A stretch of DNA of 64,000 nt from Acutalibacteraceae bacterium (GCA_045577835.1 JAZNJD010000053.1:1252-65251); one strand, 5' to 3'; shown: positions 1,107 to 46,103, numbered from the stretch's first letter. The notes: a model not told the origin generated them from the letters alone. Made by a program: numbers and translations.

Positions 1107-1120
1107 AAAACTACTCCCTT

Positions 1121-1798: not shown

Positions 1799-1812
1799 TT
1801 CTTTTCCTCCGC

Positions 1813-20538: not shown

Positions 20539-20558
20539 ATTATAACTTAAATTTTAAG

Positions 20559-21239
20559 GTGGAATATAAAGTGAAGCTTGTTTTTGAAGGAAAGGTATAC
20601 GAGTTAATACCGCAAAATCAGGGTATAGTTTTTCCCTATCGCAGAGGCGGTGACGACCAGAATGCTCTTGTATGCCTCAAAATGCTCTCAACCGAGAACG
20701 GTGTGATGAGTGATGTTGCTAAAAATATATATTTTATTTCAAAATTCGGCACCAACTACCGCGCCTCACTAGAGCTTTGCAGTAACTATGTGCTATCCCG
20801 TGCTCTTGTGCTACCATCAGGCAGAGTTTTTCTTTCGAGTGACAACGGCAATTCCTATCTCATAGACGGTGACGGTCTTCCTGTTTGGAGTGGCGATTTC
20901 AAATATAAAGGCGAGGTGCCCTCAGATATTGCGATATATAAAAACAGTCTTTGGGCAAGCTATAAAACAGCGGGAGTGCTAGTGCGCTTTAACCTTAACA
21001 CCATGCGTGAGGAACTGCGAATAGGCGGTAAAAACACACCGTTTAATAAGCCTTGCCACATTTTTATTGAAGGCAATACAGCGTATGTTAGCAATTCGGG
21101 TTCAAATAAGCTAGTTAAGGTTAACCTAAATTCATATACGGTAGAGGACTACAAAGAATTTTCAGAGCCAATATATTCTTTCGTTAAGGTAAAAGGCAAT
21201 CAGTTCGTTTTGCTTGAATCGGGAATATATGTGCTTTAA
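20559..21239 (+). CDS. Hypothetical protein (beta-rich)
   Basis: 226-aa ORF with no recognisable motif. A GTG at 20571, 8 nt after AAGGTGG, is a more likely start than 20559. Confidence 0.45.
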   Translation: MEYKVKLVFEGKVYELIPQNQGIVFPYRRGGDDQNALVCLKMLSTENGVMSDVAKNIYFISKFGTNYRASLELCSNYVLSRALVLPSGRVFLSSDNGNSYLIDGDGLPVWSGDFKYKGEVPSDIAIYKNSLWASYKTAGVLVRFNLNTMREELRIGGKNTPFNKPCHIFIEGNTAYVSNSGSNKLVKVNLNSYTVEDYKEFSEPIYSFVKVKGNQFVLLESGIYVL

Positions 21240-26473: not shown

Positions 26474-26485
26474 TATAAACTAAAC

Positions 26486-26523
26486 CCACGGCTATCGTAA
26501 AACCGATAGCCGTGGTTTTTTTA
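26486..26523. terminator. Bidirectional intrinsic terminator between rlmD and the phage-like operon
   Basis: Perfect 12-bp stem CCACGGCTATCG / CGATAGCCGTGG with a 6-nt loop, flanked by an A-run and a T8 run. Confidence 0.85.
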
Positions 26524-27693
26524 TATCAAATCTTTAGTTGCTTTTTTATTTAGTTCATTTTCCGAAAAGAGATAGGAATAGGAAAAGAATATGTAACCGC
26601 TAAGTGTTTTATCCTTTTCTATTAGCTCTACCTGTCTTTTAAGTATATCGGTTTTCTCTTTCCATTCGTGACAATCGGGCTCTGTTTCTATGCCTATCTT
26701 ATAGGCGGCAAGACCTATCGTCAGCTTTACATCATAATCGCAAAGCAGCTTTTTCCAATCATTTAAAAGCCTATCAAATCGGTAGCTTCTATCGGGATAT
26801 TCAAAACCGAAATACAGCTGCGGAATAATTCTATCCGCACAAGAGTTTTCCGCCCACGCCGCTACATCGGCAAAATATTCATTATAGTTTTTATCTATTG
26901 AGGCAGCAGGACTTATACTAAACTCTATATCCTTATTATGAAACTTAATTGCCGTATAACAGCCGCTTATAAGAGAATTAACATTGGCTCTGCGAAAATC
27001 CTCAAGTGACATAGGATTTTTATTTTCGACGGTGTAATTCTCATACGAAGCGCTATCAAAAGCAGGGTCGGTAGTAGGATAAAAATAATCGTCAAAATGT
27101 ATACCGTCTACCTCATAACGTGATACCACCTCACGCACACCGTCTATTATAAGTCTTCTTACCTCACTCGAAGCGGGGTTTAGGTATATGCCGTTTGAAA
27201 TCAGTACATTATTATCGTTACTTGCGTCTTGGTCATTAAGCCAATTATAAACAGTGCCAAACGCTTCAAGAGTCGTAACATCGCTATCGGAGGTTTTCAC
27301 CCTATAAGGATTTATCCAGCCGTGAAAACGGATATTTTTACTGTGGCAGGTGTTTATCATAAATTCTAAAACATCATAATCCTTTTGGGCAGTTTTTCTA
27401 TGGGGGAAAAACTCGCTTTTATAAATTGCATCGGCGAAAGCTCTTATATGTATGTAAGCGTCGGTTATTCCGCCCATTTTCATTTTTTCTGCCGCATTCT
27501 CAAATTCTGTTTTAAAATCTGCAGAACTAAGCATTATATCAAGCTCTGAAAAGCTAATCCAAACCCCTTTTACAGTATCTACTACTTTCTCTGTTTTTTG
27601 CGGACTATTATTTTGTATAGTGCATCCACAAAGAGAAATTAGTATTATCAGCAGTGCTGAAAGTATCCTTTTTTTCATATACCTTCCCCTCAA
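26521..27693 (-). CDS. GHL10/DUF187-family (YngK-like) glycoside-hydrolase-like lipoprotein
   Basis: 390 aa. Lipobox LISLCGC. TIM-barrel-like motifs (GVWIS, HGWINPYR, DGIHFDDYFYP) typical of family-10-like glycosylhydrolase lipoproteins. Only 4 nt downstream of the 699-aa ORF. Confidence 0.65.
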   Translation of the reverse strand: MRGRYMKKRILSALLIILISLCGCTIQNNSPQKTEKVVDTVKGVWISFSELDIMLSSADFKTEFENAAEKMKMGGITDAYIHIRAFADAIYKSEFFPHRKTAQKDYDVLEFMINTCHSKNIRFHGWINPYRVKTSDSDVTTLEAFGTVYNWLNDQDASNDNNVLISNGIYLNPASSEVRRLIIDGVREVVSRYEVDGIHFDDYFYPTTDPAFDSASYENYTVENKNPMSLEDFRRANVNSLISGCYTAIKFHNKDIEFSISPAASIDKNYNEYFADVAAWAENSCADRIIPQLYFGFEYPDRSYRFDRLLNDWKKLLCDYDVKLTIGLAAYKIGIETEPDCHEWKEKTDILKRQVELIEKDKTLSGYIFFSYSYLFSENELNKKATKDLI

Positions 27694-27697
27694 AAAA

Positions 27698-29797
27698 TTA
27701 TATTAGGTTTTTATATTTTATAGAAATCCCTTTAAGACTTATCGGCTTTTTAGATAGTATAGTTATACCAACGCCGTATGTTCCTTTAAAATGCGGAGCA
27801 AGTCTTATCGGTGAATAGCCTTTTTGTGCGCATAACACCGTTTGCTTGTATTCTATCACTCCGTCACTTAATATTATATCAGCTTCACCGATAAAATCCA
27901 TACTTATATATACTTCTTCTATTATTTTCCTTACATTAGGTGCACCAAAACAAAAAAACTTTGTTGTTATATTACTCTCTATTTCAAACTCTTTTTCTGC
28001 CGCAGCAGAATTTTCAAAGGTTAAAACCTTATCGTATTGCTCGTAAAACGACGCCAAAACGCAGTATTTACCAGCGGTATCGCCGCAAACAAGCTGCATT
28101 TTGCCACCATTAGAAAATCCTGAATAGTATTTTTGGTAGGGCAGTTTCATTACATACCAGGAAATGCTCTCACTTCGGTCGCCTAGTGCTGTGTAAACAG
28201 GCGAAATGCCAAAGTTTTTAATACTGTAATTTAGCATATAAAGGCTTTGCGCTATATAAAGCACATAATAACCGTCCATATTAATAGCAAAAGCATTTGA
28301 AAGCTCTTGCGTACTGTATGCCTTTAAGATATTTTCAATAGGCGTTGATACACAGTATATATTATTCTCTTTTCCGTAGGTTGTAGTAGCTAGTGTGTAT
28401 ACATTTGCATCGTTTGAAAGCCATACTAATCGGTTACCGCAAACCTTAACCGTATTTTTATCAATACATCCTATGCTTCCGTGAATAAGGGAAAGTGTTA
28501 TTTGCTTATTTTCAAAAACGGTGGTGTTACTACCTACAAGAGTATCCGAAAGCAGTTCGCTCTCATTCTTTTTAATAGATACCTGATAAATTTCAGTATT
28601 TTTAAAGGCTATCAGCTTATTGTTTTGAACCGCCATAGCGGTTACAGTATCACTAGGATTACCCACCGATGCCTTCATATTTTCGGGGAAATAGAGTGGG
28701 TTTTCTCTTGTGGTTGTATAGATGTTACTCGGTTTATAACCATTTCCGTAAAAAAGCACGTTAGAATTGTATATTTGACAGTGCTTACATCCTATTATTT
28801 CATCTATCGGCGCAACATTCGCCCTTGATGCCTCTAGCAACACATTATTGTTACCTATTATATAACTTCTCGGCATCGGAAAAGCATTACCCTGTTCATC
28901 ATAAAAAGATACATACCCTAAACTCCTATAACAATGCATTGTTATATTTCCGTTATCGGTGACAGCCGTTGCCGAATTTTCACCCGCCTTAATCAGCCAT
29001 TCGTGGTAATAGCCTTGAGATATGTATACCCTGCATAAAACAGTACTGTCGCTACTAAGCTTTGTAGGAAGCTCGAACTGAGTCGAATATCCATCGCTCG
29101 AATAATACGCTCTAAAACGGGATGTTAGCATATTATACCTTTCAGGCTTAACAACACTAGGTGTGCTAAAATCGCTTTGCGTTACAGCCTCCAGATATTT
29201 GTTGCCCTTTCCGTTCATTAAAACAACGGGAACATAAAAACTATCCTCATACACCATTTCCCACTCGCTATAGGTAGAGTTAAGCTCATATATCTCATAA
29301 ATACTGTCCGCACCTGATTTGCGGCTTAAAAAAGCATAAAGCCCGCAACCGTTATTTTTGCTTCCCACTAAAAATATTATGTTATCAAATTCATAATATA
29401 TGTCATAACTTGTCCGACGAATATCAAAGCTTCCCGCTTCTGTAAGCATACCGTCAGGGGAAACAAGATATACATATAGCCTTTGATAACTTGTATAGTC
29501 ACCAAAAAGTGCATATGCAACCCTGTGGATTTTATTGTCCTTTAAAAGCTCGGTATCGGTTACGGTGAGACCTTTGTGAAAGTGCCCGTCCGTTTCAAAG
29601 CCGCCTATTGCTTCATCTAGATTAAACGATAATCCCTTACGGCTTGAAAGCATTCCGTTTTTAAATAAGAGGTTAGCACCGTCGCTTAACTGATTATCAA
29701 GTATCAAATCTTCTGGGGTGTAGGTGTTTAGTCCTCCGTCAAAGCACTCGAAAGCAAATTCCTTTATGGGAGTGTTTTTAAGGTGTGAATACCTCAT
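27698..29797 (-). CDS. Large phage-like structural protein (candidate tail hub/nozzle or stabilisation protein)
   Basis: 699 aa, beta-rich with repeated blade-like segments. Follows portal and adaptor in the operon. N-terminal FDGGLNTY...LSDGANLLFKNGMLSSRKG resembles podovirus portal-proximal tail proteins. Functional call is positional. Confidence 0.4.
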   Translation of the reverse strand: MRYSHLKNTPIKEFAFECFDGGLNTYTPEDLILDNQLSDGANLLFKNGMLSSRKGLSFNLDEAIGGFETDGHFHKGLTVTDTELLKDNKIHRVAYALFGDYTSYQRLYVYLVSPDGMLTEAGSFDIRRTSYDIYYEFDNIIFLVGSKNNGCGLYAFLSRKSGADSIYEIYELNSTYSEWEMVYEDSFYVPVVLMNGKGNKYLEAVTQSDFSTPSVVKPERYNMLTSRFRAYYSSDGYSTQFELPTKLSSDSTVLCRVYISQGYYHEWLIKAGENSATAVTDNGNITMHCYRSLGYVSFYDEQGNAFPMPRSYIIGNNNVLLEASRANVAPIDEIIGCKHCQIYNSNVLFYGNGYKPSNIYTTTRENPLYFPENMKASVGNPSDTVTAMAVQNNKLIAFKNTEIYQVSIKKNESELLSDTLVGSNTTVFENKQITLSLIHGSIGCIDKNTVKVCGNRLVWLSNDANVYTLATTTYGKENNIYCVSTPIENILKAYSTQELSNAFAINMDGYYVLYIAQSLYMLNYSIKNFGISPVYTALGDRSESISWYVMKLPYQKYYSGFSNGGKMQLVCGDTAGKYCVLASFYEQYDKVLTFENSAAAEKEFEIESNITTKFFCFGAPNVRKIIEEVYISMDFIGEADIILSDGVIEYKQTVLCAQKGYSPIRLAPHFKGTYGVGITILSKKPISLKGISIKYKNLI

Positions 29798-29799
29798 AA

Positions 29800-30147
29800 C
29801 TACACCTCACAATTCGGGAAAACATCGGTTATTTTTGATATTTGCGATTTAGCCTCTGCCCTTTTTGCATTATAAAGCTCTGTAAAAAGCCTGTTTTTAT
29901 CTCCATCGCCCTCTGATAAGCTAAGCAGCATACAAACACCGTATATAAGCGCAGCCTCATGTTCGATAGCTAGCTCAAATTCCTCTAAAAAATTATTTAC
30001 AGGCGGCATTTTAAAAAGGTCAAAGCCTATGCGGTTAACAAATTCTACCGCTCGTTTTTTAAGTATATCGTTATCCTCTACCGAAAGGTATAGATTGTTA
30101 TAGCCTAGTAGCTTTACAACCGAATTATAGATATCATTTACCGTCAT
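29800..30147 (-). CDS. Small phage-like head-completion/adaptor candidate
   Basis: 115 aa, helical. Overlaps the portal stop by 14 nt and ends 2 nt before the 699-aa ORF. Call is by position and size only. Confidence 0.3.
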   Translation of the reverse strand: MTVNDIYNSVVKLLGYNNLYLSVEDNDILKKRAVEFVNRIGFDLFKMPPVNNFLEEFELAIEHEAALIYGVCMLLSLSEGDGDKNRLFTELYNAKRAEAKSQISKITDVFPNCEV

Positions 30148-31717
30148 CCTCTGTTTCCCCCTCTTTGAAAATTGACTCTGTATCGGAGATTATGCCTTTA
30201 GGAAGCCTTGCAACATACTGCTTTTCGTTTATAATTCCCTTTTCGAGTAGTTTATCTAAAACCTCAATGGTCTCATTCGCACTAAAGATAGTTTTATCAA
30301 CTACATCGGCTTTAGCGGTGAGATAAAGATGCTTATATCTTGATGCATCAAAATCCATAAAATAGGTGCCTGCTTCATCCACTATTTTGATTTTTCTAAA
30401 TCCGTAATGTGTAATCCAAAAGTCCGCCCAAATTCGAGTTATTCTCTCTATAAAACCGTAAAATCTTTTCTTCATAAGCTTAAGCGGAAGTGTTGCCGCA
30501 CTCTGCATAGTGAGTAGCGCACTGTTGTTTTCTGCCCTTGTATCACCAAGAGCAACATCATTAGCGCCGCTTTGAACGAGGGTGTTTTTTATAAGGTTGT
30601 TTGTAGCATCGCCGAACTCGTTGCAGATATCGGGCGGTGTGACATACCTCACCGCTCCCGCTACATCCTCATTAGAACCGAAAACCTTGATAATCTGGCC
30701 TGGGTCGTTGGTGATATTTTCGTTTACCGTATCACCGTTTACAACCATCATTGGCATACCCATAGTAACCGCCGACCAAACATTTGCCGTAATCATTCTG
30801 TTAATAGCAATTTGGTTTGGTATTAAATAGGTAAGCTCGGTATCCCCGTAGGCTGAGTTTTTGCGTTCTTCCCAATGGAAAACCGCTATAGGATAGAGTC
30901 TTAATTTTGTGTCAAATGCATTTCTGACAACCGCCTTTTCGGTCACCTTTATACATTTAACGGTGGTGCTGCCGTCCGGATTTTTCTCCTTATAAAGCTT
31001 TGTAAGCACCAACACCTTATCCTCTTTTGTATCCCTTAGCTTTGCAACAGTATATTTATCTGCACCAAATCTTTCTGCCTCTAGGCTGACAGCCTTAGGG
31101 TCTAAAAGAGAGGCTATAATAATATAGTTTTGCGACTCAATATCCTCTGTGTATGGGTCTGCAAAATATACATCCTCAATATCAATAACCTCACTTTTAA
31201 TATCGCCTTTAACTGCAGTTTTGCTCTTATTGTCAGCATAAAGACCGGTGTTTATTTCACCGTCCCAATAGGTGTAAATTACACCGCTGCCACTTATAAA
31301 GGAATTTTTCAAAGCCCTAAGGCATAGATTATCAAAATCCATTCGCTCAGCGGTTACACTTCTATAGTTTGAAAGTGCAGATAAAACTGTATTTATTTCG
31401 TTGTTATTAACTTCCCTTTCGGTAAAGCTTTTAACTTTAAAATCTTTTTGCGAAATTTGAGGTATACCCTCGGCAGATATCTTTACAGAAATATCGTTTG
31501 CGAAAATTTGTGACATTTTATAGTCACCAATTCTTTTTATAATATTGTGGCGCACAAGCGGTTTTTTGGTTGTGTTATCGACACCGTGCCATTGATCTCC
31601 TGTATAAAACCTCTCGTTTATACGGCTTTGCTCATAAAGCCCTTTTGCACCTATGCTTCTTTTAAAATTTACACCCTTTGTGTATTCACTGAATATTTCC
31701 TGAGGTTTATATTTCAT
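30134..31717 (-). CDS. Phage portal protein
   Basis: 527 aa. N-terminal NERFYTGDQW motif and size are typical of portal proteins. Sits in the head-gene cluster. Confidence 0.65.
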   Translation of the reverse strand: MKYKPQEIFSEYTKGVNFKRSIGAKGLYEQSRINERFYTGDQWHGVDNTTKKPLVRHNIIKRIGDYKMSQIFANDISVKISAEGIPQISQKDFKVKSFTEREVNNNEINTVLSALSNYRSVTAERMDFDNLCLRALKNSFISGSGVIYTYWDGEINTGLYADNKSKTAVKGDIKSEVIDIEDVYFADPYTEDIESQNYIIIASLLDPKAVSLEAERFGADKYTVAKLRDTKEDKVLVLTKLYKEKNPDGSTTVKCIKVTEKAVVRNAFDTKLRLYPIAVFHWEERKNSAYGDTELTYLIPNQIAINRMITANVWSAVTMGMPMMVVNGDTVNENITNDPGQIIKVFGSNEDVAGAVRYVTPPDICNEFGDATNNLIKNTLVQSGANDVALGDTRAENNSALLTMQSAATLPLKLMKKRFYGFIERITRIWADFWITHYGFRKIKIVDEAGTYFMDFDASRYKHLYLTAKADVVDKTIFSANETIEVLDKLLEKGIINEKQYVARLPKGIISDTESIFKEGETEDDGK

Positions 31718-31737
31718 ATTTTTCCTCCTTTTAAAAA

Positions 31738-31775
31738 CCGCCCTGCCACCATTTTAGTCGGCAAGGCGGAAATAA
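31738..31775 (-). terminator. Intrinsic terminator/attenuator between capsid and portal genes
   Basis: Minus-strand CCGCCTTGCC-N13-GGCAGGGCGG stem followed by TTTTT, immediately before the portal RBS AAAGGAGG. Confidence 0.6.
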
Positions 31776-31786
31776 AGTTGTAAGGT

Positions 31787-32962
31787 TTAGTTAACTGTTA
31801 CACAGGCTGCATCGGTTTCGGTATAAGCAATACCATCAATGATTATACGAACAAAGAAGTAGTGTGTACCCGAGCTTAAATCCTTTGGAATAGTAAAGGT
31901 GTTTTTATTAGCACCCGCTACCTTTACAGCACCGTTTTTGTTTTCATCCTTACAGCTATACCACTGATAAGATAAAGTAGCATCTGAGGTAGCAGTTACA
32001 GAAAGCTCTTCATTAATGCTTCCCTCAGTGACAACTACATCACTTGGTGAAGATGTGATGCTTACCGCAGGGGAAAGCCAAGCCCAAATAGTATCAAGAC
32101 CGCTTCCCGATACAAATACATCATAGTAAATTCTGTAATCGAACTTGTATGCATCGGCATCAATATTCTGTTCAGGTGTGAAAATTCTCATCTGCTCGGT
32201 CTTCTTTACAAGATGAGCGCTACGCTTAGGACATACAAGCATATAAATCTCTCTAGCGCTTGACATTGGCTTAAAGCCGCCGGCACCTGAGGTGTTGAAT
32301 GTATACGCTGTCTTCATACGCTCTGAAACAACGGGTAAAAGTGCTACACCGTTCAAAGACTTAACCTTAAGATTTACCTCGCCCTGCTTAAAGTCGGATA
32401 CGGTAATCATACGGGAAATCTCGTTTGAGTTTGAGAGAGCTGCATACATACCGCTATCAAGAAATGCTACTAGCTCCTCATCATAGCCTGCAACACTCTG
32501 TACCTCGTTAATAAGCTTGCAAAGTGCCTCGAATGGCTTTTCAATGTCGCCATCGATAGTGTTAGCTCTTGTGGCCGCAAGACCTGCAAGCTTTGAAAGA
32601 ACATAGGCATCACACTCAGGAACTACCTTTGTTCTTACATACTCACCTAAAATCTTACCTGCAAGGTTTGCAATACCTGTTTCGTCCATATCCTCTCGGT
32701 CAATCTGTAAAGAGCGTGCTCTATCCATAAGCATTGTATAAGAATTGTTGCTCACGGTGATAGCGCCACGGGTGAAACCGGTATCACGGTCATAGTCTGC
32801 AAGGCCCTGAAAATCAACATCGGGAATAATCACGGTCTTAGCGCCTACGAATTTTGTAGCTAGGGCGTTGTCTGCAAAAAAGCCTGTTACGCTCTTTTGC
32901 TCAAACATACGGTCTAGCTCGTCTGAATATCTTACTGCATTTTCTATTGAATTGATTGACAT
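31787..32962 (-). CDS. Phage major capsid protein with C-terminal Ig-like domain
   Basis: 391 aa. The N-terminal 290 aa match the capsid family with FVGAKTVIIPDVDFQGLADYDRDTGF...LQIDREDMDETG. The C-terminal ~95 aa (SITSSPSDVVVTEGS...LSYQWY...GTHYFFV) looks Ig-like. Confidence 0.75.
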   Translation of the reverse strand: MSINSIENAVRYSDELDRMFEQKSVTGFFADNALATKFVGAKTVIIPDVDFQGLADYDRDTGFTRGAITVSNNSYTMLMDRARSLQIDREDMDETGIANLAGKILGEYVRTKVVPECDAYVLSKLAGLAATRANTIDGDIEKPFEALCKLINEVQSVAGYDEELVAFLDSGMYAALSNSNEISRMITVSDFKQGEVNLKVKSLNGVALLPVVSERMKTAYTFNTSGAGGFKPMSSAREIYMLVCPKRSAHLVKKTEQMRIFTPEQNIDADAYKFDYRIYYDVFVSGSGLDTIWAWLSPAVSITSSPSDVVVTEGSINEELSVTATSDATLSYQWYSCKDENKNGAVKVAGANKNTFTIPKDLSSGTHYFFVRIIIDGIAYTETDAACVTVN

Positions 32963-32981
32963 ATAAATTTCTCCTTATATT

Positions 32982-33587
32982 TTAATTTCCCCAAAGTCCC
33001 TTTAAAAAGCGACTTCTTATCGGGTCGAAGCTGCCGTCATCTTTTTTACTTTGTGAGCCTACACTCTGCTTATCGGCTAAAGCTTCTTTTACTTTTTCTT
33101 CACGCTTTTTCTTTGAAAGCTCGTATCTTAAATATTCGTCAAACAAATTTCTGCCATAAAGCTTTGCGTTTTCTAACACCTCATCGGGAACCTTTGAAAT
33201 ATCGTCTATATGCGGGTATGCCGCCTGTAGCTCGTCAAAGCCTATTGCAGTTTGCTTTTTAAAGGCACCTAGATTCGCAATAGCCTCTAGCAAATCTTCT
33301 TTGCTTGAACAACCCTCAATTAAGCCTTTAGCTTTCTTTAGCTCCGCCTCTTTTTCAAGGCCTGTTATGTAATCGGCTGCACTCTTGCCCTCATATTCGG
33401 CAAGTGATTTTATACGCTCAAGCATTGGGCTTACAGCATCAAACTTTAATCCCTTTTGGGCAAGTATCACAGCCTCCTCTAAGGGTATTTCCTTTACCTC
33501 TTTATTAAACTTTACGCTTATTGCCTTCTCCTCACTCGGCTCGTTTTCCGAGTTTTTGAGAGCTTTAATCTCTTTTTCTTTATCCAT
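32982..33587 (-). CDS. Phage scaffolding protein
   Basis: 201 aa, highly charged and helical. Lies immediately upstream of the capsid gene. VKFNKEVKEIPLEEAVILAQKG resembles Firmicute phage scaffold N-termini. Confidence 0.55.
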   Translation of the reverse strand: MDKEKEIKALKNSENEPSEEKAISVKFNKEVKEIPLEEAVILAQKGLKFDAVSPMLERIKSLAEYEGKSAADYITGLEKEAELKKAKGLIEGCSSKEDLLEAIANLGAFKKQTAIGFDELQAAYPHIDDISKVPDEVLENAKLYGRNLFDEYLRYELSKKKREEKVKEALADKQSVGSQSKKDDGSFDPIRSRFLKGLWGN

Positions 33588-33611
33588 TTTTCCTCCTGCG
33601 AATTAAATTTA

Positions 33612-33761
33612 CTAGCTTCCGTCAAACTCTAAAAAGCTTTTATACTCGTTGTCATATTTTTTTATCCTAAAGGGTTTCTTTATCTGTCTATATGCAGACC
33701 TTGAAAAATATCCGAGTATAAAGCCTAGTGCTAAGCCTATAAAAAACATCCGATAAATCAT
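33612..33761 (-). CDS. Unannotated 49-aa single-TM ORF between terL and scaffold
   Basis: Own translation: MIYRMFFIGLALGFILGYFSRSAYRQIKKPFRIKKYDNEYKSFLEFDGS. Its ATG overlaps the terL TGA (ATGA). Below the ORF-track size cutoff. Confidence 0.35.
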   Translation of the reverse strand: MIYRMFFIGLALGFILGYFSRSAYRQIKKPFRIKKYDNEYKSFLEFDGS

Positions 33762-35044
33762 ACATTCCAACCTCCCTTGAATATATCACCGTAGGAGCTC
33801 TTACTACCGTCTTTTAAAGGCTTGAAAAACTTAACATCCTCAAAGGCATACCTTAAAGCATCGCAGAGATGGTTGTCTGTGTCCTTTGGTAGCCTCATTC
33901 CGTTTTCACTTCGCCTGTCGTCGTATACATAGCTTGAAAGCTCCTTTATCATATTGACGCATTTAGGGTCAACAACAATCGTATATTCACAGATTTTAGA
34001 AATGCCGTTTAGTATGCTGTCCGCACCCTTAACCGAGGGGGTTATTCTCTGTATACCGAGACGCTTTAGGTCATCATTTGATTTAGGTTCTGCCGAATCT
34101 GCCCTAATTCGTTCTTTCCTATAGCCTCTATCTATAATCTCCCTTGCAATATCGCAGTTTAACATCCTCTTTTTGTAAAACTCATCGAAAATGTATATCT
34201 TTTTAGAGATTGGATTTACCTTAAAAGCAACAAATGCTGTAGGGTCGTTTGTATAGCCATAATCAAGACCGAAAAAGTTTTTCCAAAGGTGCGCCTCATT
34301 TTCGGGTATCTGAACCCTTCCAACATTCCAGTTTTCATAAACTAGTCCCTCTGAAATTCCCCAGTTTCCAAGTCCTGCCACCTCATATTTTCTTCTGTTT
34401 TCATTCTTCATTCGCTCAAAAATTGCCCTGTCGGTGTCGTCTAAGAATTCATTTGTAAGGTAGTTTGTAGAAAAAACTTCGCAGTTTTTTTGTGTTTTAT
34501 CAAAAAAGCGTTTTTTGAGCCAGTGCGTATCACTCCACGGGTTAAAGGTTATGGTGGTCTGCTTAAATAACGGAGGCGGTATCTTACCCCTCGGCACCGA
34601 AAGGTCCAGCTTATCGAAATCGCCCTCGTCGCCTATTTCAAATGCTTCCTCTATCCACACAAAATTAAGATAGCCTGTTGGCACAGTAGCAGAGGCAAGC
34701 TTTAAAACATCGTCAAAGCCTCTGAAAAGTATCTTTTGTCCTGTCGGCTTGTAGGTCATCTCCATAGGACTTACGGTGTTTGTCCACAGATGTTCAACAC
34801 CGAGTTTACCTTGAGCCCATTTCAGCTGTGCAAAGGTAGAATCCCTATGCGTGTTCATAACCTGCCGCACAACCAAAAGATTACTTCCCTCATACTTCAT
34901 AATGCGGTAGATAAGATTTAGCGCGGTGGTTGTGCTTTTTTTAGAGGCCTTCCCGCCTTTAAGCACTCGGTAACGTGCTTTCGAGCGCCAAAACTCATCA
35001 TAACCCTTGCCAACAATTTTTGAGAGCTTAATCTCCGATGTCAT
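33758..35044 (-). CDS. terL: Phage terminase large subunit (PBSX/XtmB-like family)
   Basis: 428 aa. P-loop region RYRVLKGGKASKKST, Walker B VWIEEAFE, and C-terminal nuclease motif DNHLCDALRYAFED. Confidence 0.88.
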   Translation of the reverse strand: MTSEIKLSKIVGKGYDEFWRSKARYRVLKGGKASKKSTTTALNLIYRIMKYEGSNLLVVRQVMNTHRDSTFAQLKWAQGKLGVEHLWTNTVSPMEMTYKPTGQKILFRGFDDVLKLASATVPTGYLNFVWIEEAFEIGDEGDFDKLDLSVPRGKIPPPLFKQTTITFNPWSDTHWLKKRFFDKTQKNCEVFSTNYLTNEFLDDTDRAIFERMKNENRRKYEVAGLGNWGISEGLVYENWNVGRVQIPENEAHLWKNFFGLDYGYTNDPTAFVAFKVNPISKKIYIFDEFYKKRMLNCDIAREIIDRGYRKERIRADSAEPKSNDDLKRLGIQRITPSVKGADSILNGISKICEYTIVVDPKCVNMIKELSSYVYDDRRSENGMRLPKDTDNHLCDALRYAFEDVKFFKPLKDGSKSSYGDIFKGGWNV

Positions 35045-35294
35045 CTATTATTTTTACTGTCCTTTCCGTATTTAAAGTCTCGTCTTGCGGCAGCATACTT
35101 CGCAGTTCTTTAATGGCACTAAGGTCACCCGATGCAGCTTTTTTGTAGAGTGCTATCGCTATAGCGGCTGTTCTTGTCGGCTTAGTTATCACAAAGCCCT
35201 GTTTTTTGAGCTCTTGCTCCTCCCGCTCTGATAAACCCTCGCCCAAAAGCTTGGAGAGTGAATCCTTTAACCTTTGAGAAGCGTCTTTTTTCAT
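35028..35294 (-). CDS. Short terminase small-subunit-like protein
   Basis: 88 aa. TAAIAIALYKKAASGDLSAIKELRSML resembles the oligomerisation core of TerS proteins. Overlaps terL by 17 nt. No N-terminal HTH-sized domain. Confidence 0.45.
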   Translation of the reverse strand: MKKDASQRLKDSLSKLLGEGLSEREEQELKKQGFVITKPTRTAAIAIALYKKAASGDLSAIKELRSMLPQDETLNTERTVKIIDDIGD

Positions 35295-35444
35295 CTACTT
35301 CAAGGCCTCCTTAAAAGAACCATTTATGTAAAGAACGGCGTCCGGATCACCGTTCGCGTAGTAAAGTAATATATTTACTTGCGACTTTCACCGACCTCTT
35401 GAAAAAGTATAAAAAATGGTGTATAATATTTTGAAAATTAGGAA

Positions 35445-35882
35445 GTGATGAATTTTATGTCAAATTATAAAAAAAGCGCTAAGATTTCCCTTGTGATTAC
35501 ATATATCTTTATGTTTTTGCTTATTGTATTAACAATCGGGCTTCCCTACGGTATAAGTTGGTATGTTGAGATAAAAGGTCGCTCGGCAGACCTTGCGGCT
35601 ATAGTTATGCTCACCTGTTACCCCTGTGTGCCTTTTGCCGCTGTAGCACTTTTCTGCCTTCGCAGATTTTTAAAAAATCTAATAAAGGATACACTTTTTG
35701 AAAGCAATCATCTTCGTGACCTTATATATATTGCTTTTTGCTGTTTGTTTAGCGGAATTATAATGCTGATTGCTGGTATTTTTTATATGCCTTTTTATAT
35801 TTCGGGCGGTGCGGCAGTGTTCTGCGCCCTTATAGTTAAGGTAATTTACGATGCAATGTTAAATCTAAAAGAGAGAGGATAA
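35445..35882 (+). CDS. DUF2975-family membrane protein
   Basis: 145 aa with 4 TM segments. Preceded by a TTGAAA-N17-TATAAT promoter with an extended -10 TG. Confidence 0.55.
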   Translation: MMNFMSNYKKSAKISLVITYIFMFLLIVLTIGLPYGISWYVEIKGRSADLAAIVMLTCYPCVPFAAVALFCLRRFLKNLIKDTLFESNHLRDLIYIAFCCLFSGIIMLIAGIFYMPFYISGGAAVFCALIVKVIYDAMLNLKERG

Positions 35883-35887
35883 ATTTT

Positions 35888-36157
35888 ATGAGAACTGTTG
35901 TTTCGGTTATCGGTAAGGATAGCGTGGGAATTATCGCAAAGGTAAGCGCTATTTGTTCGGCACACGATGTTAATATCGTTGATATAACACAGTCGGTTAT
36001 GCAAAGCGATATTTTTGCGATGGTTATGCTGACAGATGTTTCAAAAGCTAACGACTATAACCACTTTGTTGATACACTAAAGGATTTGGGCAAAGAATTA
36101 AGCCTTGATGTTAGAGTTATGCACGAGGATGTTTTTAACTCTATGCACCGTATATAA
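35888..36157 (+). CDS. ACT-domain protein (UPF0237)
   Basis: 89 aa. VISVIGKDSVGIIAKVS ACT signature. Canonical partner of the following UPF0210 gene. Confidence 0.85.
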   Translation: MRTVVSVIGKDSVGIIAKVSAICSAHDVNIVDITQSVMQSDIFAMVMLTDVSKANDYNHFVDTLKDLGKELSLDVRVMHEDVFNSMHRI

Positions 36158-36169
36158 GAGGTATAAAAA

Positions 36170-37528
36170 ATGCTTAATTTAAAAGACATAATGGAAACGG
36201 TCACAATGTTTGAGCAGGAAAACCTTGATATAAGAACTATCACTATGGGTATTTCTTTGCTTGACTGTGCCGATTCGGACGCAAAGGTAGCTTGCAATAA
36301 AATCTACAACAAAATAACCCGCCTTGCAGGAAACCTGGTTAAGACGGGTTGTGATATAGAAAAGGAATACGGAATTCCTATTATAAACAAAAGAATTTCG
36401 GTAACGCCTATCGCTATGGTAGCAGCGGCTTCGGGAGCTGACCCTGTTTTGTTCGCCCGTACTCTACAGCGTGCCGCTGATGCTACAGGTGTAAACTTTA
36501 TAGGCGGTTATTCTGCACTCGTACATAAAGGCTTTTCTGCAGGCGATAGAGCGCTTATCGAATCTATCCCACAAGCACTTGCAGAAACCACTAATATTTG
36601 CGCATCGGTAAATATTGGCTCTACCAAGTCGGGTATAAATATGGATGCCGTAGCGCTAATGGGTAAAACTGTAAGAGAAGCGGCTATACTCACAAAAGAC
36701 AATAATTGCTTAGGCCCTGCAAAGCTAGTAGTTCTTTGTAATGCGCCTGAGGATAATCCATTTATGGCGGGCGCTTTTCACGGTGTTGGCGAGCCTGACT
36801 GTGTTCTACACGTCGGCGTTTCGGGTCCCGGTGTTGTGCAATCAGCAATAAAGAAATGTCCAAACGGTGACCTTGGCGAAATAGCCGAGGTTATAAAGAA
36901 AACTGCATTTAAAATAACCCGTATGGGTCAGTTAGTAGGTAACGTTGCGTCCTCTAGACTCGGTGTTCCCTTTGGCATAGTTGATCTATCCCTAGCGCCT
37001 ACCCCAGCGGTTGGTGACTCGGTAGCAAGAATACTAGAGGAAATCGGTCTTGAACAGTGCGGTATCCACGGCACCACAGCAGCACTTGCTATGCTTAACG
37101 ATGCGGTTAAAAAGGGTGGCGTTATGGCTTCCTCCTCAGTAGGCGGTCTTTCGGGCGCATTTATTCCTGTATCCGAGGATGCGGGTATGATAGAGGCTGC
37201 AAGAGAAGGCACCCTCACTATCCAAAAGCTAGAGGCTATGACGGCGGTTTGCTCGGTTGGTCTTGATATGATAATTCTCCCCGGCGATACTCCCGAAGAG
37301 GTTATCTCGGCAATAATTGCCGACGAAGCGGCTATCGGTATGGTAAACTCAAAGACCACCGCTGTTAGAGTTATCCCCGCTATCGGCAAGGGTGTTGGCG
37401 AAGAACTAAACTTTGGCGGACTTTTAGGAAGCGGACCTGTTATGGACCTTAACATTACCAAAAGTCCTAAGAAGTTTATTGAGCGTGGCGGCAGAATACC
37501 TGCACCTATGCAAAGCCTTAAAAACTAA
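36170..37528 (+). CDS. UPF0210/DUF711-family protein
   Basis: 452 aa. [11 protein letters not shown]-terminus and the conserved ACT-UPF0210 gene pair. Confidence 0.85.
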
Positions 37529-37614
37529 AGTTTTACTTTGTAGGAGACGGCACCTACGATCTCCCGAAAACATAAAAAAGATGTGTGGAAAAGGCGACCT
37601 CTCATAAGGATGAT

Positions 37615-37645
37615 AAAAACCACGATGAATTTCATCGTGGTTTTT
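37615..37645. terminator. Bidirectional intrinsic terminator inside the insert
   Basis: AAAAA-CCACGATGA-ATT-TCATCGTGG-TTTTT, a perfect 9-bp stem. Confidence 0.7.
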
Positions 37646-37736
37646 CTTGTGCATATCTGATAAAACTAGCATCGCATCTGTAAGTACAAACGCTGCTTTT
37701 GGGGTTATCCCCCTTTTTACACCAAAGCAAAAAACA

Positions 37737-37891
37737 AGTGATATTCTGTGCTGCCGCACAGAGTGATATTTTCACTCTGTGAAAGTGATATTACTCCCTC
37801 TGGTCGTAGTGATATTTTATTCGTCCTAAAAACTGTCCGAAGGACAATATCACGATGCGTAAGCATCATATAACTGCAAAGCAATATCACT
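37737..37891. repeat. Iteron-like array of the 9-mer AGTGATATT
   Basis: Exact AGTGATATT at 37737, 37762, 37784 and 37808 (spacing 22-25 bp). One exact inverted copy lies at 37883-37891 and an 8/9 inverted copy at 37846-37853. Confidence 0.8.
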
Positions 37892-37985
37892 CGCCGCAAG
37901 GCGAATAAAACTGCGAGACTTCCCTTAGAGAAGTCTCGCAATCCACACATCTTTAATTTTTTCTAAAACATAATTCGTCTTATTT

Positions 37986-38052
37986 GTAGGGGAGGGGTCT
38001 CCCCTCCCATTCAAGTTTTTTATATTTACGGGAGGCGAAACGCCTCCCCTAC
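37986..38052. repeat. Convergent pair of GTAG-type REP-like hairpins
   Basis: GTAG-GGGAGGGG-TCT-CCCCTCCC (37986-38008) and GGGAGGCG-AAA-CGCCTCCC-CTAC (38030-38052), separated by a 21-nt AT-rich spacer. Confidence 0.65.
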
Positions 38053-38064
38053 GCTGTGAATCTA

Positions 38065-38514
38065 TTATTTATTTTCGATTTGCAAATTCCCCAAATTTAT
38101 AATTTTTATATTTTTCTTAATTGCTTTCTCGACGAATTCATAAGTATTAGAAAATTTATTATCTAAATAACAAATCAAATAATCAGTATTTTGTAACATA
38201 TAGTCATTTCTTTTACATATTGCAAAGCGTGGTGGAGTTTTTGCAACACAGTCAGGAAAAATTGTTTTCACAGTATCATAATATGTAAATTCGTTTTCTC
38301 TATTCAAATATGCCAAAACCACATTTATTTTAATTATATATTTTTTCTCTAGCACACACAACACTTCATATACAAGCCTATCAAAAGCACCCTGTGTCCC
38401 TACATAAAATATATTAACATTTTCCTTAACAATTAAATTTTCAATTTCCAAAAGTAATTTTCCTTTAATACTTTTAGAACAATCCCTATGACCTAAAAAA
38501 GCACAAGCATACAT
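38065..38514 (-). CDS. SLOG/DUF1273-family protein (YpsA-like)
   Basis: 149 aa. The AFLGHRD N-terminus and YVGTQGAFD motif are typical of DUF1273 SLOG proteins. Locally AT-rich. Confidence 0.65.
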   Translation of the reverse strand: MYACAFLGHRDCSKSIKGKLLLEIENLIVKENVNIFYVGTQGAFDRLVYEVLCVLEKKYIIKINVVLAYLNRENEFTYYDTVKTIFPDCVAKTPPRFAICKRNDYMLQNTDYLICYLDNKFSNTYEFVEKAIKKNIKIINLGNLQIENK

Positions 38515-38653
38515 AATATCACCTCATCTATTGAAATATTCCTATCTTACAAAAAGTATAATAGACAAACTTCAGAAAGTCAACTCAAAAGAGGTAATTT
38601 TTACAACTCAAAATGGTTAATATGATTGTAAAGACTATTTTCGAGGTGATATT

Positions 38654-38896
38654 ATGCGTATTGGTGAGGCAGTAAAACAACGAATTATAGATTTGTGTGA
38701 CAAAGAAAATATTACTATAAATAAATTAGCAACTATTTCAGGAATTACCCAATCCACCATTAACAATATCACAGGCGGAAGAAATAATTCTGCAACCGTT
38801 TCGACAATTAAAAAGATTTGTGACGGTTTAGAAATTGGCATCAAGGATTTTTTCAATTCCCCGCTGTTTGATAATTTAGAACAAGAAATCAAGTAG
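38654..38896 (+). CDS. XRE-family HTH transcriptional regulator
   Basis: 80 aa. KLATISGITQSTINNI helix-turn-helix. Confidence 0.8.
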   Translation: MRIGEAVKQRIIDLCDKENITINKLATISGITQSTINNITGGRNNSATVSTIKKICDGLEIGIKDFFNSPLFDNLEQEIK

Positions 38897-38904
38897 GTAT
38901 TAAC

Positions 38905-39132
38905 ATGTTTAATAGAATAAGAGATTTACGGGAAGATAAAGATTTAAACCAAACCGAAGTTGCAAAAATTTTGGGAATGTCACAAACAGGATATTCAAAA
39001 TATGAAACAGGAGAAAACGATATTCCAACCGCAGTTTTAATAAAACTTGCCCGTTTTTATAACACAAGCATTGACTATCTCCTAGGTGAAACAGATTGTA
39101 AAGAATGTTATCCCAAAACAAAAAAATCTTGA
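38905..39132 (+). CDS. XRE-family HTH transcriptional regulator
   Basis: 75 aa. LREDKDLNQTEVAKILGMSQTGYSKYETG. Paralog of the ORF at 51237-51452. Confidence 0.85.
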   Translation: MFNRIRDLREDKDLNQTEVAKILGMSQTGYSKYETGENDIPTAVLIKLARFYNTSIDYLLGETDCKECYPKTKKS

Positions 39133-39162
39133 ATTTTACTATGAAACCCAACCCCATATAAT

Positions 39163-39201
39163 AAAAAGATGTGTGGATTTTTCCACACATCTTTAATTTT
39201 T
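39163..39201. terminator. Bidirectional terminator hairpin (uninterrupted copy of the hairpin split at 37577/37954)
   Basis: AAAGATGTGTGGA-TTTT-TCCACACATCTTT, 13-bp perfect stem, followed by AATTTTT and preceded by an A-run. Confidence 0.75.
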
Positions 39202-39228
39202 ACCAAGTAAAATTGGTTTTTGATTATT

Positions 39229-39579
39229 CTAAATATAAAAAACAATTATTCCTATAATTACAAGAATATTACCTAACAACTTTCTTTTAGTTATTTTCTC
39301 ACCAAAAAACACAAGGGAGAAAATCATAATAAGCACATAACCTAGCGATTCAATAACAGGACCGTTTTTATAATCTAATCCCCTACCGTAAGCTAGTACC
39401 GTAAGAACGGTTGTTAGCGCCATCATTCCGTAACCTATAATGACATACACATTTAGATACTCTTTTAAAACAGAGGTGTGTTGCTTTTGCGCACTTTTTT
39501 TAAGAAATACTTGTGAAAACGCCGATACTATAACGGCAGATACCATAAGTATCCAAGGTAAATATTTAATCATGTTCAC
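39229..39579 (-). CDS. SMR/EamA-like 4-TM subunit, ArnE/ArnF-like flippase candidate
   Basis: 116 aa with 4 TM segments. Overlaps the upstream paralog by 14 nt. Confidence 0.55.
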   Translation of the reverse strand: MNMIKYLPWILMVSAVIVSAFSQVFLKKSAQKQHTSVLKEYLNVYVIIGYGMMALTTVLTVLAYGRGLDYKNGPVIESLGYVLIMIFSLVFFGEKITKRKLLGNILVIIGIIVFYI

Positions 39580-39943
39580 TATTCACTATCATTGTGCCTA
39601 TAAGAACAATGATTACTCCTATAATATTTTGAACGGTTATATTATCCTTAAAAATAACCGCTGCCCAAATCATCGACCATATAATTGCCATAGCACGATT
39701 AGCATAGGCGATAGACAGGTCAACCTTTTTAATGATTTGTTGCCAAAGTAGCGCATAAATACCTAAAACACAAAATTCGGCACCGTAAAACAAAATAAAT
39801 TTCCAGGATAAAAACGGATTGCCCGAGGCTAATTTTGCAAATATACCCGAAGCGGTGTAAATCATCACTACCGCCTGTAGCATCAGTATCTGTTTTAAGC
39901 TTATCTTGCGAGTTTTATTATTTTTTTCCATCATCATTACCAA
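39566..39943 (-). CDS. SMR/EamA-like 4-TM subunit, ArnE/ArnF-like flippase candidate
   Basis: 125 aa with 4 TM segments. Overlaps the GT2 gene by 26 nt. Confidence 0.55.
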   Translation of the reverse strand: MVMMMEKNNKTRKISLKQILMLQAVVMIYTASGIFAKLASGNPFLSWKFILFYGAEFCVLGIYALLWQQIIKKVDLSIAYANRAMAIIWSMIWAAVIFKDNITVQNIIGVIIVLIGTMIVNSEHD

Positions 39944-40874
39944 TATTAACGGTTTTGCGTATAACCGCTTGAGGAGAATTATTAAGGCTTATATAAATTC
40001 TTCCTATGTATTCGCCTATTAAACCAAGCATTAATAAAACCATTCCGCCTAAAAAGACTAGCATGGCCATAATTGAACTATATCCCATCGGAGAGGTTGG
40101 ATTAAAGAAAAGCTTGTTAAGTATAACATAGATTCCGTATAAAAATCCAACGCTTGCACAGATAACACCTATTATTGTGGCAATTCTTAAAGGCTTTACA
40201 GAAAAGGACGTAAATCCGTTTACCCAAAGACTCATTAATTTTTTAAAGGTGTATCCGGAATTGCCCTCTAACCTGTCCTGATGATGAATTTCTACATTTG
40301 CGATTTTCTTGGTTGAACGAAGCAGTAGACCTGAAACATAAGGATATGGATTATTATATTTAATAACCTCGTCGATTATAAAACGGCGACAGCAAAAATA
40401 ACTCATCATAGCAAGCTCTTTAGGCTTTTCGAGCATAATACGAGCCATAAGGTCATTTACACTGCTACCGAAATTGCGGAAAAAGGAATGCTTCTTATTA
40501 GAATACTTTGCAAAAACAACATCGTAGCCTTCAAGCAGCTTATCAACAAGCACAAAAAGCTCAGAGGCGGGTGTTTGACCGTCATCGTCTAAGCATACAA
40601 CAATATCGCCTGTTACAAATCTAAAGCCTGTCATCAAAGCAGAATGTTGACCAAAATTTTTAGAAAGGTCAATACCTTTAATTCTATTATCCTTTTTAGC
40701 CATATCGCAAATCACATCAAACACATTATCAGGCGAGCTGTCATTAACCAAGATAATCTCATAATCATATTCCGCACGAAGTGACATAGTTTCTTTTATG
40801 CTTTGGGCAACAAGCGGTATTGTCTTTTCAGAACGATAACACGGAATAACAAACGATATTTTATTAAGCTTCAT
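39918..40874 (-). CDS. GT2 polyprenyl-phosphate glycosyltransferase (ArnC/GtrB/CsbB-like)
   Basis: 318 aa. SFVIPCY...NDSSPD...DDDGQ GT-A motifs plus two C-terminal TM helices. Confidence 0.82.
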   Translation of the reverse strand: MKLNKISFVIPCYRSEKTIPLVAQSIKETMSLRAEYDYEIILVNDSSPDNVFDVICDMAKKDNRIKGIDLSKNFGQHSALMTGFRFVTGDIVVCLDDDGQTPASELFVLVDKLLEGYDVVFAKYSNKKHSFFRNFGSSVNDLMARIMLEKPKELAMMSYFCCRRFIIDEVIKYNNPYPYVSGLLLRSTKKIANVEIHHQDRLEGNSGYTFKKLMSLWVNGFTSFSVKPLRIATIIGVICASVGFLYGIYVILNKLFFNPTSPMGYSSIMAMLVFLGGMVLLMLGLIGEYIGRIYISLNNSPQAVIRKTVNIGNDDGKK

Positions 40875-41394: not shown

Positions 41395-41400
41395 ATAAAG

Positions 41401-42558: not shown

Positions 42559-42576
42559 AAATAAATATATATAATT

Positions 42577-42605
42577 ATTATATAATTATTAACTTATAAA
42601 ATCAA
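42577..42605 (-). promoter_or_regulatory. Sigma-A-type promoter of the amino-sugar operon
   Basis: Minus strand TTGATT-N17-TATAAT. Shares an identical 19-mer with the wzz promoter at 63121-63139. Confidence 0.55.
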
Positions 42606-45994: not shown

Positions 45995-46103
45995 ATATAC
46001 TTCCCTTCAGACCTTAAAAACTTAAAGATATGCCATTGCATTATACCACATATTTTCAAAAAAGACAATAGTTTACACAAATGGTAACACTTTCTTAATA
46101 ATT

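Follow-up and report, generated by a model that had tools for sequence, protein, structure and literature searches.

A conserved chromosomal operon of podovirus-type virion genes in Acutalibacteraceae-type gut bacteria, a probable source of gene transfer agent-like particles

This study concerns an operon of phage-type virion genes in the chromosome of an Acutalibacteraceae bacterium (GCA_045577835.1), which we analysed within a stretch of 64,000 nucleotides (JAZNJD010000053.1:1252-65251), referred to as the window in the following; all positions are counted from its first letter. The operon consists of nine open reading frames (ORFs) on the minus strand, which run from 35294 to 26521, span 8.8 kb and are all uninterrupted. 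Neighbouring ORFs overlap or are separated by short gaps, the longest of which (31718-31786, 69 nt) lies between the genes for the major capsid protein (MCP) and the portal. An earlier note on this DNA, made from the sequence alone, had described these co-directional ORFs as an intact phage head and DNA-packaging cluster. ORF calling on the window recovered all nine of them, unbroken; the restriction to head and packaging functions was mistaken. Since an adaptor of 115 amino acids (aa) and a nozzle of 699 aa are also encoded, the operon is not head-only, but a combined unit of head, packaging, tail-hub and lysin genes.

According to gene annotation, the operon is indeed set between core genes, as the note had stated. 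Its left flank holds genes for UvrD, DUF975 and DUF5412 as well as rlmD, which is convergent with the operon, and its right flank holds those for DUF2975, ACT and DUF711. With rlmD it shares the predicted strong bidirectional terminator (26486-26515), an intrinsic one with a 12-bp stem, eight GC pairs and T-runs on both strands. The GC content of the cluster (0.36-0.43) is the same as that of the remainder of the window, and a repeat search of the window found no direct repeats of the att type around it; the note had likewise seen neither a compositional break nor att-like repeats. No integrase or replication gene was found in the cluster, beside it or in the approximately 80 relatives described below, and no phage-like gene occurs outside the cluster in the window. 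Genes for a sheath, tube, tape measure or baseplate, which would point to a contractile or long tail, were not found in the operon, and genes for a tail needle or plug, a tailspike or fibre, or ejection proteins were found in neither the operon nor the window.

The first gene (35028-35294; all nine are on the minus strand) encodes an 88-aa protein in the position of a small terminase subunit (TerS) and overlaps the start of the gene for the large terminase subunit (TerL). The protein measures 87-92 aa in all relatives and is strongly conserved, and searches against Pfam, PHROGs and NCBIfam detected no DNA-binding domain in it. It matches phrog_2412 weakly, a family that a 187-aa protein found in the same position matches with E = 9e-10. 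TerL (33758-35044), with its ATPase and nuclease parts, is readily recognized by the Terminase_3 (E = 1.4e-46) and Terminase_3C (E = 5e-26) profiles and by TIGR01547, the model of the PBSX family (E = 2.7e-50). It is followed by a single-pass membrane protein with a TTG start and a conserved C-terminal EYxNFLxYDG motif (33612-33770), which has 52 aa and not the 49 given in the note. A small transmembrane ORF lies between TerL and the scaffold in 82 of 87 loci, free phages included; its products form a family of 55-97 aa, whose C-terminal motif can be written as EYxNFLxYDG(T/S)xQ and for which Pfam, PHROGs and NCBIfam gave no match. The ORF is therefore, by its conservation, a real gene.

The 201-aa product of the fourth gene (32982-33587) is a putative scaffolding protein, so named because its gene precedes that of the MCP in all relatives; it is homologous to proteins of 250-290 aa at the same position in related phages. 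The MCP itself (31787-32962) comprises a capsid part (aa 1-295; phrog_422, E = 1e-70) and an Ig-like C-terminal domain (aa ~296-391; weak match to Ig_3). The portal (30134-31717) belongs to phrog_156 (E = 2.8e-24) and matches P22_portal with E = 5.5e-5, which is under the Pfam cut-off. These profile matches uphold the terminase, capsid and portal identities that the note had proposed.

The two tail-hub proteins were identified by fold comparison alone, as PDB sequence searches with the MCP, portal and nozzle and with an adaptor profile returned nothing meaningful. For the 115-aa protein (29800-30147), the AF2 model (pLDDT 84) is a four-helix fold, and its best matches are Sf6 gp7, P22 gp4 and T7-like gp11-type proteins (probability 0.96-0.99, TM-score 0.56-0.68, with E-values of only 0.09-0.6). 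While these E-values are weak, the position between portal and nozzle fits a P22 gp4/Sf6 gp7-like adaptor, so that model and position agree with the adaptor candidate of the note. The 699-aa protein (27698-29797), for which there is no informative sequence match and which the note had simply called structural, can be specified further: its all-beta model (pLDDT 89.8, pTM 0.86) retrieves about 30 solved podovirus nozzle or tail-tube-B chains in Foldseek at E = 4e-20 to 6e-9, among them E1004, Kp9, T7 gp12, P22 gp10 and Sf6. Judged by its modelled fold, it is a podovirus tail nozzle of the T7 gp12/P22 gp10 type.

The last gene (26521-27693) encodes a lipoprotein of the GHL10 family, as proposed earlier (PF02638, E = 4.8e-47), whose residues 56-381 match the catalytic domain of Clostridioides difficile Cwp19 (PDB 5OQ2) with E = 3.2e-38, and 61 of 63 homologues retain the lipobox cysteine. 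In C. difficile, the exported Cwp19 acts as a lytic transglycosylase and brings about autolysis in stationary phase, upon which cytoplasmic content is released (PMC6016235). We therefore regard the GHL10 protein as a member of the Cwp19 type with an export signal, a predicted peptidoglycan lytic transglycosylase and a candidate lysin. The earlier statement that the cluster lacks a lysis gene is doubtful for the endolysin, because the lipoprotein belongs to a family with proven peptidoglycan-lytic activity; it stands for the holin, of which the window has none. That the end of the operon serves in lysis is suggested by two kinds of relatives: in a sister lineage (L089; such handles denote the loci compared), genes for an XhlA-like protein, holin and Amidase_3 endolysin occupy the position of GHL10, and in 23 species an XhlA-like ORF of 81 aa follows the GHL10 gene.

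Upstream of the first gene lies a sequence motif, GTCGGTGAAAGTCG (35382-35395, minus strand), whose family consensus is ttttAT-GTCGGTGAATGTCGc. It is near-invariant in all 57 related loci for which sequence is available there and lies about 310 nt ahead of the TerL start in 68 loci. In the relatives, a TATtAT or TATAAT hexamer follows about 13 nt after the motif; in the window, the candidate -10 element (35363-35373, minus strand) is either TATATT (35373-35368) or TACTTT (35368-35363), the latter with the 13-nt spacing typical of the family. The region thus has the appearance of a promoter. An informal comparison with the consensus sequences of SigH, SigE/K/F/G, SigD, ECF and TcdR-type sigma factors gave no match, and the motif is absent from the examined stretches of the phage contigs L093-L105, which are introduced below. 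Between the putative promoter and a ribosome-binding site (GGAGG, 35306-35310, minus strand) that we read from the sequence, the 5' leader contains a stem-loop, GAACGG...CCGTTC (35333-35355, minus strand). Leader stem-loops of differing sequence occur at the same place in the subclade with a DUF711 neighbour, and the fold is not significant by itself. The terminator that the note had placed in the MCP-portal gap corresponds to a hairpin with a U-run (31733-31769, minus strand; dG -25.8 kcal/mol, z = -3.96), which may act as an attenuator or partial terminator; 29 of 84 related MCP-portal gaps have a hairpin with a T-run, and all of these gaps fold strongly. On the opposite strand, a near-consensus promoter of the sigma-70 type (35399-35427, plus strand; TTGAAA-17-TATAAT, 11 of 12 matches) is predicted for the divergent DUF2975-ACT-DUF711 operon. 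It stands back-to-back with the motif, at a distance of 4 nt, and the two may interfere with each other.

Homologues of the MCP are numerous, with more than 2200 in a large protein collection, the top 120 of which are 75-95% identical. A genome scan with a 12-sequence MCP alignment, based on one genome per GTDB species, found MCP relatives in 417 species representatives, and the locus comparison covers the best 80 of these 417 (73-80% MCP identity). All 80 are metagenome-assembled genomes from gut or rumen, with the labels Acutalibacteraceae, Ruminococcaceae, Oscillospiraceae or Clostridia; judging by these closest relatives, the organism studied here probably falls into the same group. The cluster was found in essentially every species representative recovered, and in about 80 of them its gene order is invariant and its spacing compact. 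Identity to the proteins of the window is about 76% for the MCP, 75% for TerL, 54% for the portal, 53% for the 88-aa protein, 50% for GHL10, 40% for the adaptor, 38% for the scaffold and 29% for the nozzle, the fastest-diverging of the genes, compared with about 83% for DUF711, a neighbouring core gene. The edges of the cluster are exact while its neighbours vary among species: the DUF2975-ACT-DUF711 flank is present in about 25 loci, and other neighbours are glgB/C/D, an ABC transporter, nadE and the rpoA-L17 end of the ribosomal operon. Synteny, to which the earlier note had pointed as a check, hence holds for the gene order of the cluster itself and, for this flank, only in those 25 or so loci. 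In 11 species (L010, L035, L043, L052 and seven others), glgB-glgC-glgD lies directly downstream of the operon on the same strand.

The genes of the cluster are under purifying selection. Relative to the closest relative, L001, whose MCP is 93% identical and to which synonymous divergence (dS) is about 0.5-1.5, the ratio of nonsynonymous to synonymous substitution rates (dN/dS) lies at 0.05-0.18 in eight genes out of nine (TerL 0.054, MCP 0.07, portal 0.10, 88-aa protein 0.13, nozzle 0.16 and scaffold 0.17 among them); the 52-aa ORF yields 0.69, over 52 codons only. The flanking housekeeping genes have ratios of 0.01-0.13 at a similar dS. Furthermore, the distances between species in TerL, MCP and portal correlate with those in DUF711 (r = 0.62-0.80, Mantel p < 0.001). 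Forty of 60 complete loci meet all coverage thresholds, and most failures reflect divergence of the scaffold; real damage is confined to about three loci. Among the relatives with deletions or truncations are L038, with a deletion from mid-portal through nozzle, and L069 and L073, whose clusters are partial. L038 (Ruminococcaceae bacterium UBA1734, ~11000-13200) has lost the C-terminal half of the portal, the adaptor and the nozzle but has kept TerL, MCP and GHL10, a case of secondary loss in this clade. Taken together, this is the pattern that we would associate with a long-maintained, vertically inherited element and not with a decaying prophage or a mobile satellite. The maintained function that the note had favoured over decay is supported by the synteny, by ratios like those of the flanking genes and by a divergence that tracks a core gene; the cluster is neither specific to one strain nor bounded by att sites, and its products do include capsid, portal and terminase proteins.

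The phage ancestry of the operon is documented by free relatives. Viral contigs of about 34-35 kb in IMG/VR (L093, 3300045988_181881; L094, IMGVR_UViG_3300029698_000018; L097, L100 and L103) contain the same module from TerL to nozzle in the same order, with TerL proteins 65-72% and MCPs 52-62% identical to those of the window, and add primase/helicase, HNH endonuclease, PAPS-reductase-like and other early genes. Their virion module consists of the same genes and a single further one after the nozzle, whose product is 266-438 aa long and conserved at its N-terminus. Because of this, the chromosomal operon appears to be nearly the whole virion module of its phage ancestor. The differences are instructive, as they indicate which parts changed upon domestication: the TerS-position protein, the scaffold, the decoration of the capsid and the final gene of the virion module. 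The phages have a TerS of 124-188 aa, whose N-terminal region matches the TerS families phrog_51/641, whereas the operon starts with the 88-aa protein; their scaffold has 250-290 aa, compared with about 190-215 aa in the chromosomal version; their MCP is devoid of the Ig domain; and the place after the nozzle is taken by the 266-438-aa protein in the phages and by GHL10 in the operon. Replication and lysogeny genes have all been lost from the chromosomal version.

The motif upstream of the operon is not confined to it. A metagenome scan with the motif and -10 hexamer returned 71 loci, of which 10 are head operons; in the remaining loci, the motif directly precedes small isolated transcription units. 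Most frequent among these is a pair formed by a 185-aa protein with a MuF/SPP1-gp7-like C-terminal Cys/His motif and a partner of about 85 aa (19 loci; phrog_8089 'head morphogenesis' and DUF6883, both weak matches), and in seven further loci a Phage_Mu_F motif is fused to barnase (PF00545, 6.8e-11) and accompanied by Barstar (PF01337, 2.5e-21). Other units encode collagen-repeat fibre proteins (eight loci), a GH25/CW_7 endolysin with an r1t-type holin (four), and, in two loci each, an XhlA-like protein, an Amidase_3, a VapE-like protein and the 187-aa relative of the 88-aa protein (phrog_2412). In one case (L149), a fibre gene is followed by GH25 and holin genes within one unit, and a second locus with fibre or lysis genes is seen in relatives (L149, L129, L141 and L080), not in the window. 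Several cassette classes stem from the same samples at similar coverage.

The MuF-motif cassettes share a common build, a variable C-terminal domain (barnase or DUF6883-like) combined with a small partner (Barstar or the 85-aa protein). They are scattered over varied chromosomal contexts (185-aa/85-aa pairs in L115, L123, L144, L157 and L176; barnase/Barstar pairs in L117, L119, L127 and L161) and at times occur as tandem duplicates (L157). Two species representatives with a head cluster, L073 and L080, also hold motif units nearby. In L073, these are 185-aa/85-aa cassettes (19870-20604) 9 kb from the head cluster. In L080, an operon 5 kb from the head operon (794-2278, minus strand) is headed by the gene for a sigma70_r4 protein, followed by those for an M23/CW_7 lysin and an r1t-type holin, and a related sigma-like gene follows GHL10 in L016 (9685-10125, minus strand). 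Proteins of this kind (146-173 aa) stand beside the system in these two loci only, and the window has none; the small sigma70_r4 protein could be the factor by which the conserved motif is recognized. Overall, the shared motif suggests a multi-locus system under one dedicated factor, which for the genome studied here we infer from its relatives.

How, then, are these observations best explained? We consider it probable that the operon is a chromosomally fixed, vertically inherited virion module of a short-tailed phage lineage with genomes of about 34 kb, which its hosts have kept to make 'viriform' particles resembling gene transfer agents (GTAs). A domesticated GTA-like particle with functions encoded elsewhere had been among the possibilities raised by the earlier note, and the synteny, the selection, the lack of att sites and the motif-sharing cassettes of relatives all speak for it. 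In such a system, a dedicated factor encoded elsewhere, such as an activator or a small sigma-like protein, would fire the conserved promoter, and procapsids would be built from scaffold, Ig-decorated MCP and portal, with the hairpin after the MCP gene skewing transcript stoichiometry towards the capsid genes. TerL and its 88-aa partner would then fill the heads with DNA by a headful mechanism, for which we expect little sequence specificity, because the partner has no recognizable DNA-binding domain. Adaptor and nozzle would close the portal vertex to form a stubby podovirus tail, and the exported GHL10 enzyme would aid the lysis of the producer, in relatives together with holin/endolysin cassettes under the same promoter. 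Fibres, if any, would be supplied by unlinked cassettes, and the released particles could deliver their DNA to recipient cells.

Several observations weigh against this interpretation. The window contains no fibre, holin or regulator genes and a single copy of the motif, so that the multi-locus picture comes from relatives and metagenomic contigs and not from this genome. The 88-aa protein can be traced to TerS only tentatively, by its position and by a weak similarity to the C-terminal part of one phage TerS; a profile comparison with phage TerS proteins gave an hhalign probability of 3%, with a phage set that was mixed. GHL10 is missing from the operon end in one subclade (L009, L015, L020, L025 and L055). 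Finally, the motif also precedes VapE-like and TerS-position genes of possible mobile elements so that it could be a late promoter inherited from the phage ancestor instead of the mark of a takeover by the host.

Among the alternatives, the one that fares best, although we deem it unlikely, is that the particle chiefly serves as a weapon or for protein delivery, carrying MuF-type toxins into neighbouring cells while kin are spared by the paired immunity proteins. It draws on the fact that MuF-type two-gene cassettes (19 + 7) are what the motif most often precedes in metagenomic relatives, on their presence 9 kb from the head cluster of L073, and on the precedent of SPP1 gp7, which rides inside capsids on the portal, together with the proposal that MuF toxins are cargo of phage particles (PMC5576092). 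Set against this, the window contains no MuF cassette, and the MuF-like region of the cassette proteins spans only about 50 residues and scores under the curated thresholds. Moreover, TerL is among the most constrained genes of the operon, which indicates that DNA packaging matters, although PBSX-type killer particles also package host DNA. Toxin delivery and DNA transfer are, besides, not mutually exclusive. A variant that we rate slightly lower still casts the operon as the core of a dispersed single-promoter regulon, whose podovirus particle would be loaded with MuF-motif toxins that are injected with or without DNA. If true, it would represent a capsid-based system of toxin delivery and kin discrimination in gut Clostridia and the first natural test of the MuF-in-heads hypothesis of 2017.

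The other possibility raised by the earlier note, a capsid-forming satellite, finds no support in our analysis, and we regard it as very improbable. Such an element, akin to the capsid-forming phage-inducible chromosomal islands (cf-PICIs), would make its own heads, depend on the tails, fibres and lysis genes of a helper, and spread horizontally. A compact module of capsid, portal, terminase and connector genes without fibres is in keeping with this, as is the occurrence of the motif before VapE-like genes, which are common in satellites, at two metagenomic loci; a recent preprint also notes that the criteria for GTAs and satellites overlap. Yet no integrase, excisionase, replication gene or att repeat lies within or beside the cluster, either in the window or in the approximately 80 relatives, the cluster is fixed across species with a divergence that tracks a core gene, and, with an adaptor and a nozzle of its own, it has no need to borrow a podovirus tail hub. 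Least plausible of all is a plain prophage remnant in neutral decay, to which the lack of replication, lysogeny and fibre genes and the damage in L038, L069 and L073 might point, but which is largely refuted: over the dS that separates even the closest relative, neutral decay would have disrupted the ORFs, while all nine are intact here and in most relatives, with low dN/dS, 73-80% MCP identity over about 80 species and a conserved promoter motif.

The surroundings of the operon have features of their own. An 11-kb block (26474-37528), which comprises DUF711-ACT-DUF2975 and the operon, is inverted relative to L001 (5472-16456); in both genomes it sits between rlmD and a group of LDcluster4, NUDIX, sulfatase and AraC genes (42661-46988 in the window), and no long inverted repeats were found at its ends. 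Beyond it lies a match to the Gut-1 RNA (RF01706, 37842-37913, minus strand; 55.7 bits, gathering score 50), within a 77-aa ORF (37717-37950, minus strand) whose translation weakly resembles an ORF of the phage contig L093 (3779-4099, E = 1e-4). The region (37577-37966) is bracketed by inverted arms of 34 nt (37577-37610 and 37921-37954), and a 25-nt direct repeat from it recurs at 39182-39206 with 92% identity. To our knowledge, Gut-1 has so far been reported only in gut metagenome sequence without classification; the present copy belongs to a chromosome of the Acutalibacteraceae type and borders a low-GC island. We considered a link between this RNA and the cluster and rejected it, since Gut-1 is absent from seven related loci. 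The island itself (38000-42600, about 4.6 kb, 29-37% GC) is missing from the same junction in L001. Its genes, which encode YpsA-SLOG, two half-size EamA transporters, a GT2 glycosyltransferase, a GNAT acetyltransferase and a DegT-type aminotransferase, rule out a hidden tail or lysis module and suggest a cassette for sugar modification that was gained by horizontal transfer. Five tRNA genes (Met, Asp, Arg, Pro and Gly; 63285-63735, plus strand) are located at the end of the window.

Returning to our preferred interpretation, a domesticated GTA-like module, the closest known parallel is FpGTA of Faecalibacterium prausnitzii, a podovirus-like GTA-like system with two loci (operons I and II), whose 40-nm particles contain about 9 kb of DNA (PMC12946183). 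GTA-like packaging has also been found in several other Oscillospirales families, for which the loci were not identified (PMC12946183). Packaging of this kind is reported to be common in gut Oscillospirales, while the responsible genes have been identified only in Faecalibacterium, and the operon described here is an independent candidate locus for a second large clade, the Acutalibacteraceae-type bacteria of human, ruminant and horse guts. If its particles are active, they could be a major route of gene flow or toxin delivery among abundant gut commensals. Full-text literature searches returned no published description of the cluster or of a link between MuF toxins and GTAs.

Both systems reside in gut Oscillospirales, are nearly ubiquitous in their host clades, have an operon of about 9-10 kb without integrase or replication genes, and encode a short TerS-like protein without a DNA-binding domain, TerL, portal, scaffold, MCP and a P22 gp10-like nozzle. 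FpGTA has its fibres and holin/endolysin in a separate locus; for the present system, comparable cassettes under the shared motif are seen in relatives only, and the single unit of fibre, GH25 and holin genes in L149 resembles FpGTA II. The differences are nevertheless considerable. In the FpGTA annotations (RCH50849.1 and RCH50852.1), the MCP is a member of the N4-gp56 family, whereas the present MCP is of the phrog_422 type and has no N4-gp56 match in NCBIfam at E <= 0.1; the TerL of FpGTA is annotated as 'Terminase-like family', whereas ours belongs to the Terminase_3/PBSX family. Consecutive accessions indicate the order TerL-portal-Prp-MCP for FpGTA, compared with TerL-TM-scaffold-MCP-portal here (TM, the small membrane protein); the Prp-like protein that separates MCP and portal in FpGTA has no homologue in the present operon, which ends in the GHL10 lytic-transglycosylase lipoprotein. 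Lastly, the particles of FpGTA have been shown by experiment, whereas the present system is known from its genes. We considered orthology between the two and rejected it, as family assignments and gene order differ in a comparison based on the annotations of FpGTA. By accession numbering, the FpGTA II locus (RCH48794-48797), although unrelated, also lies near a glycogen gene, glgA (RCH48790), a parallel to the glgB-glgC-glgD neighbours mentioned above that may be coincidental.

With the RcGTA-type agents of Alphaproteobacteria, the operon shares the domesticated cluster of phage structural genes, vertical inheritance under purifying selection, a protein in the TerS position that lacks a DNA-binding domain, the absence of self-replication and, going by its relatives, accessory loci in other places that seem to be regulated in common. 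RcGTA, however, belongs to the siphovirus-like type: it has a long tail, HK97-type head genes and a prohead protease and is regulated by CtrA/GafA, whereas the present system resembles podoviruses, encodes a scaffold but lacks a protease, resides in an unrelated host phylum and uses an unrelated promoter motif. Its tail hub resembles that of P22, Sf6 and T7, with portal, gp4/gp7-like adaptor and gp10/gp12-like nozzle recognizable by sequence or fold and in the same gene order, but the needle/plug, tailspike and ejection genes of those phages are not part of the operon, and identity to the solved proteins is 8-12%. With PBSX-type defective prophages, it has in common that TerL falls into the 'PBSX family' model, and tail genes of that type were not found. 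Cwp19, in turn, is anchored by CWB2 repeats and unlinked to phage genes, whereas the corresponding domain here is carried by a lipoprotein at the end of a virion operon.

Two features by which GTAs are defined are found at this locus, a phage-derived structural cluster devoid of replication, integration and excision genes and its maintenance by the host through vertical inheritance and purifying selection. For a third, particles filled with essentially random host DNA in pieces too short to hold the entire system, the hints are indirect: the short TerS-position protein, in which no DNA-binding domain was detected, and the dispersed regulon of relatives. Given the differences from the systems discussed above, the operon most likely represents an independently domesticated, GTA-like kind from a family not yet described, which stands out by an autolysin homologue of the Cwp19 type within the operon, by a capsid decorated with Ig domains and by a motif that ties the virion genes to fibre, lysis and toxin-immunity cassettes.

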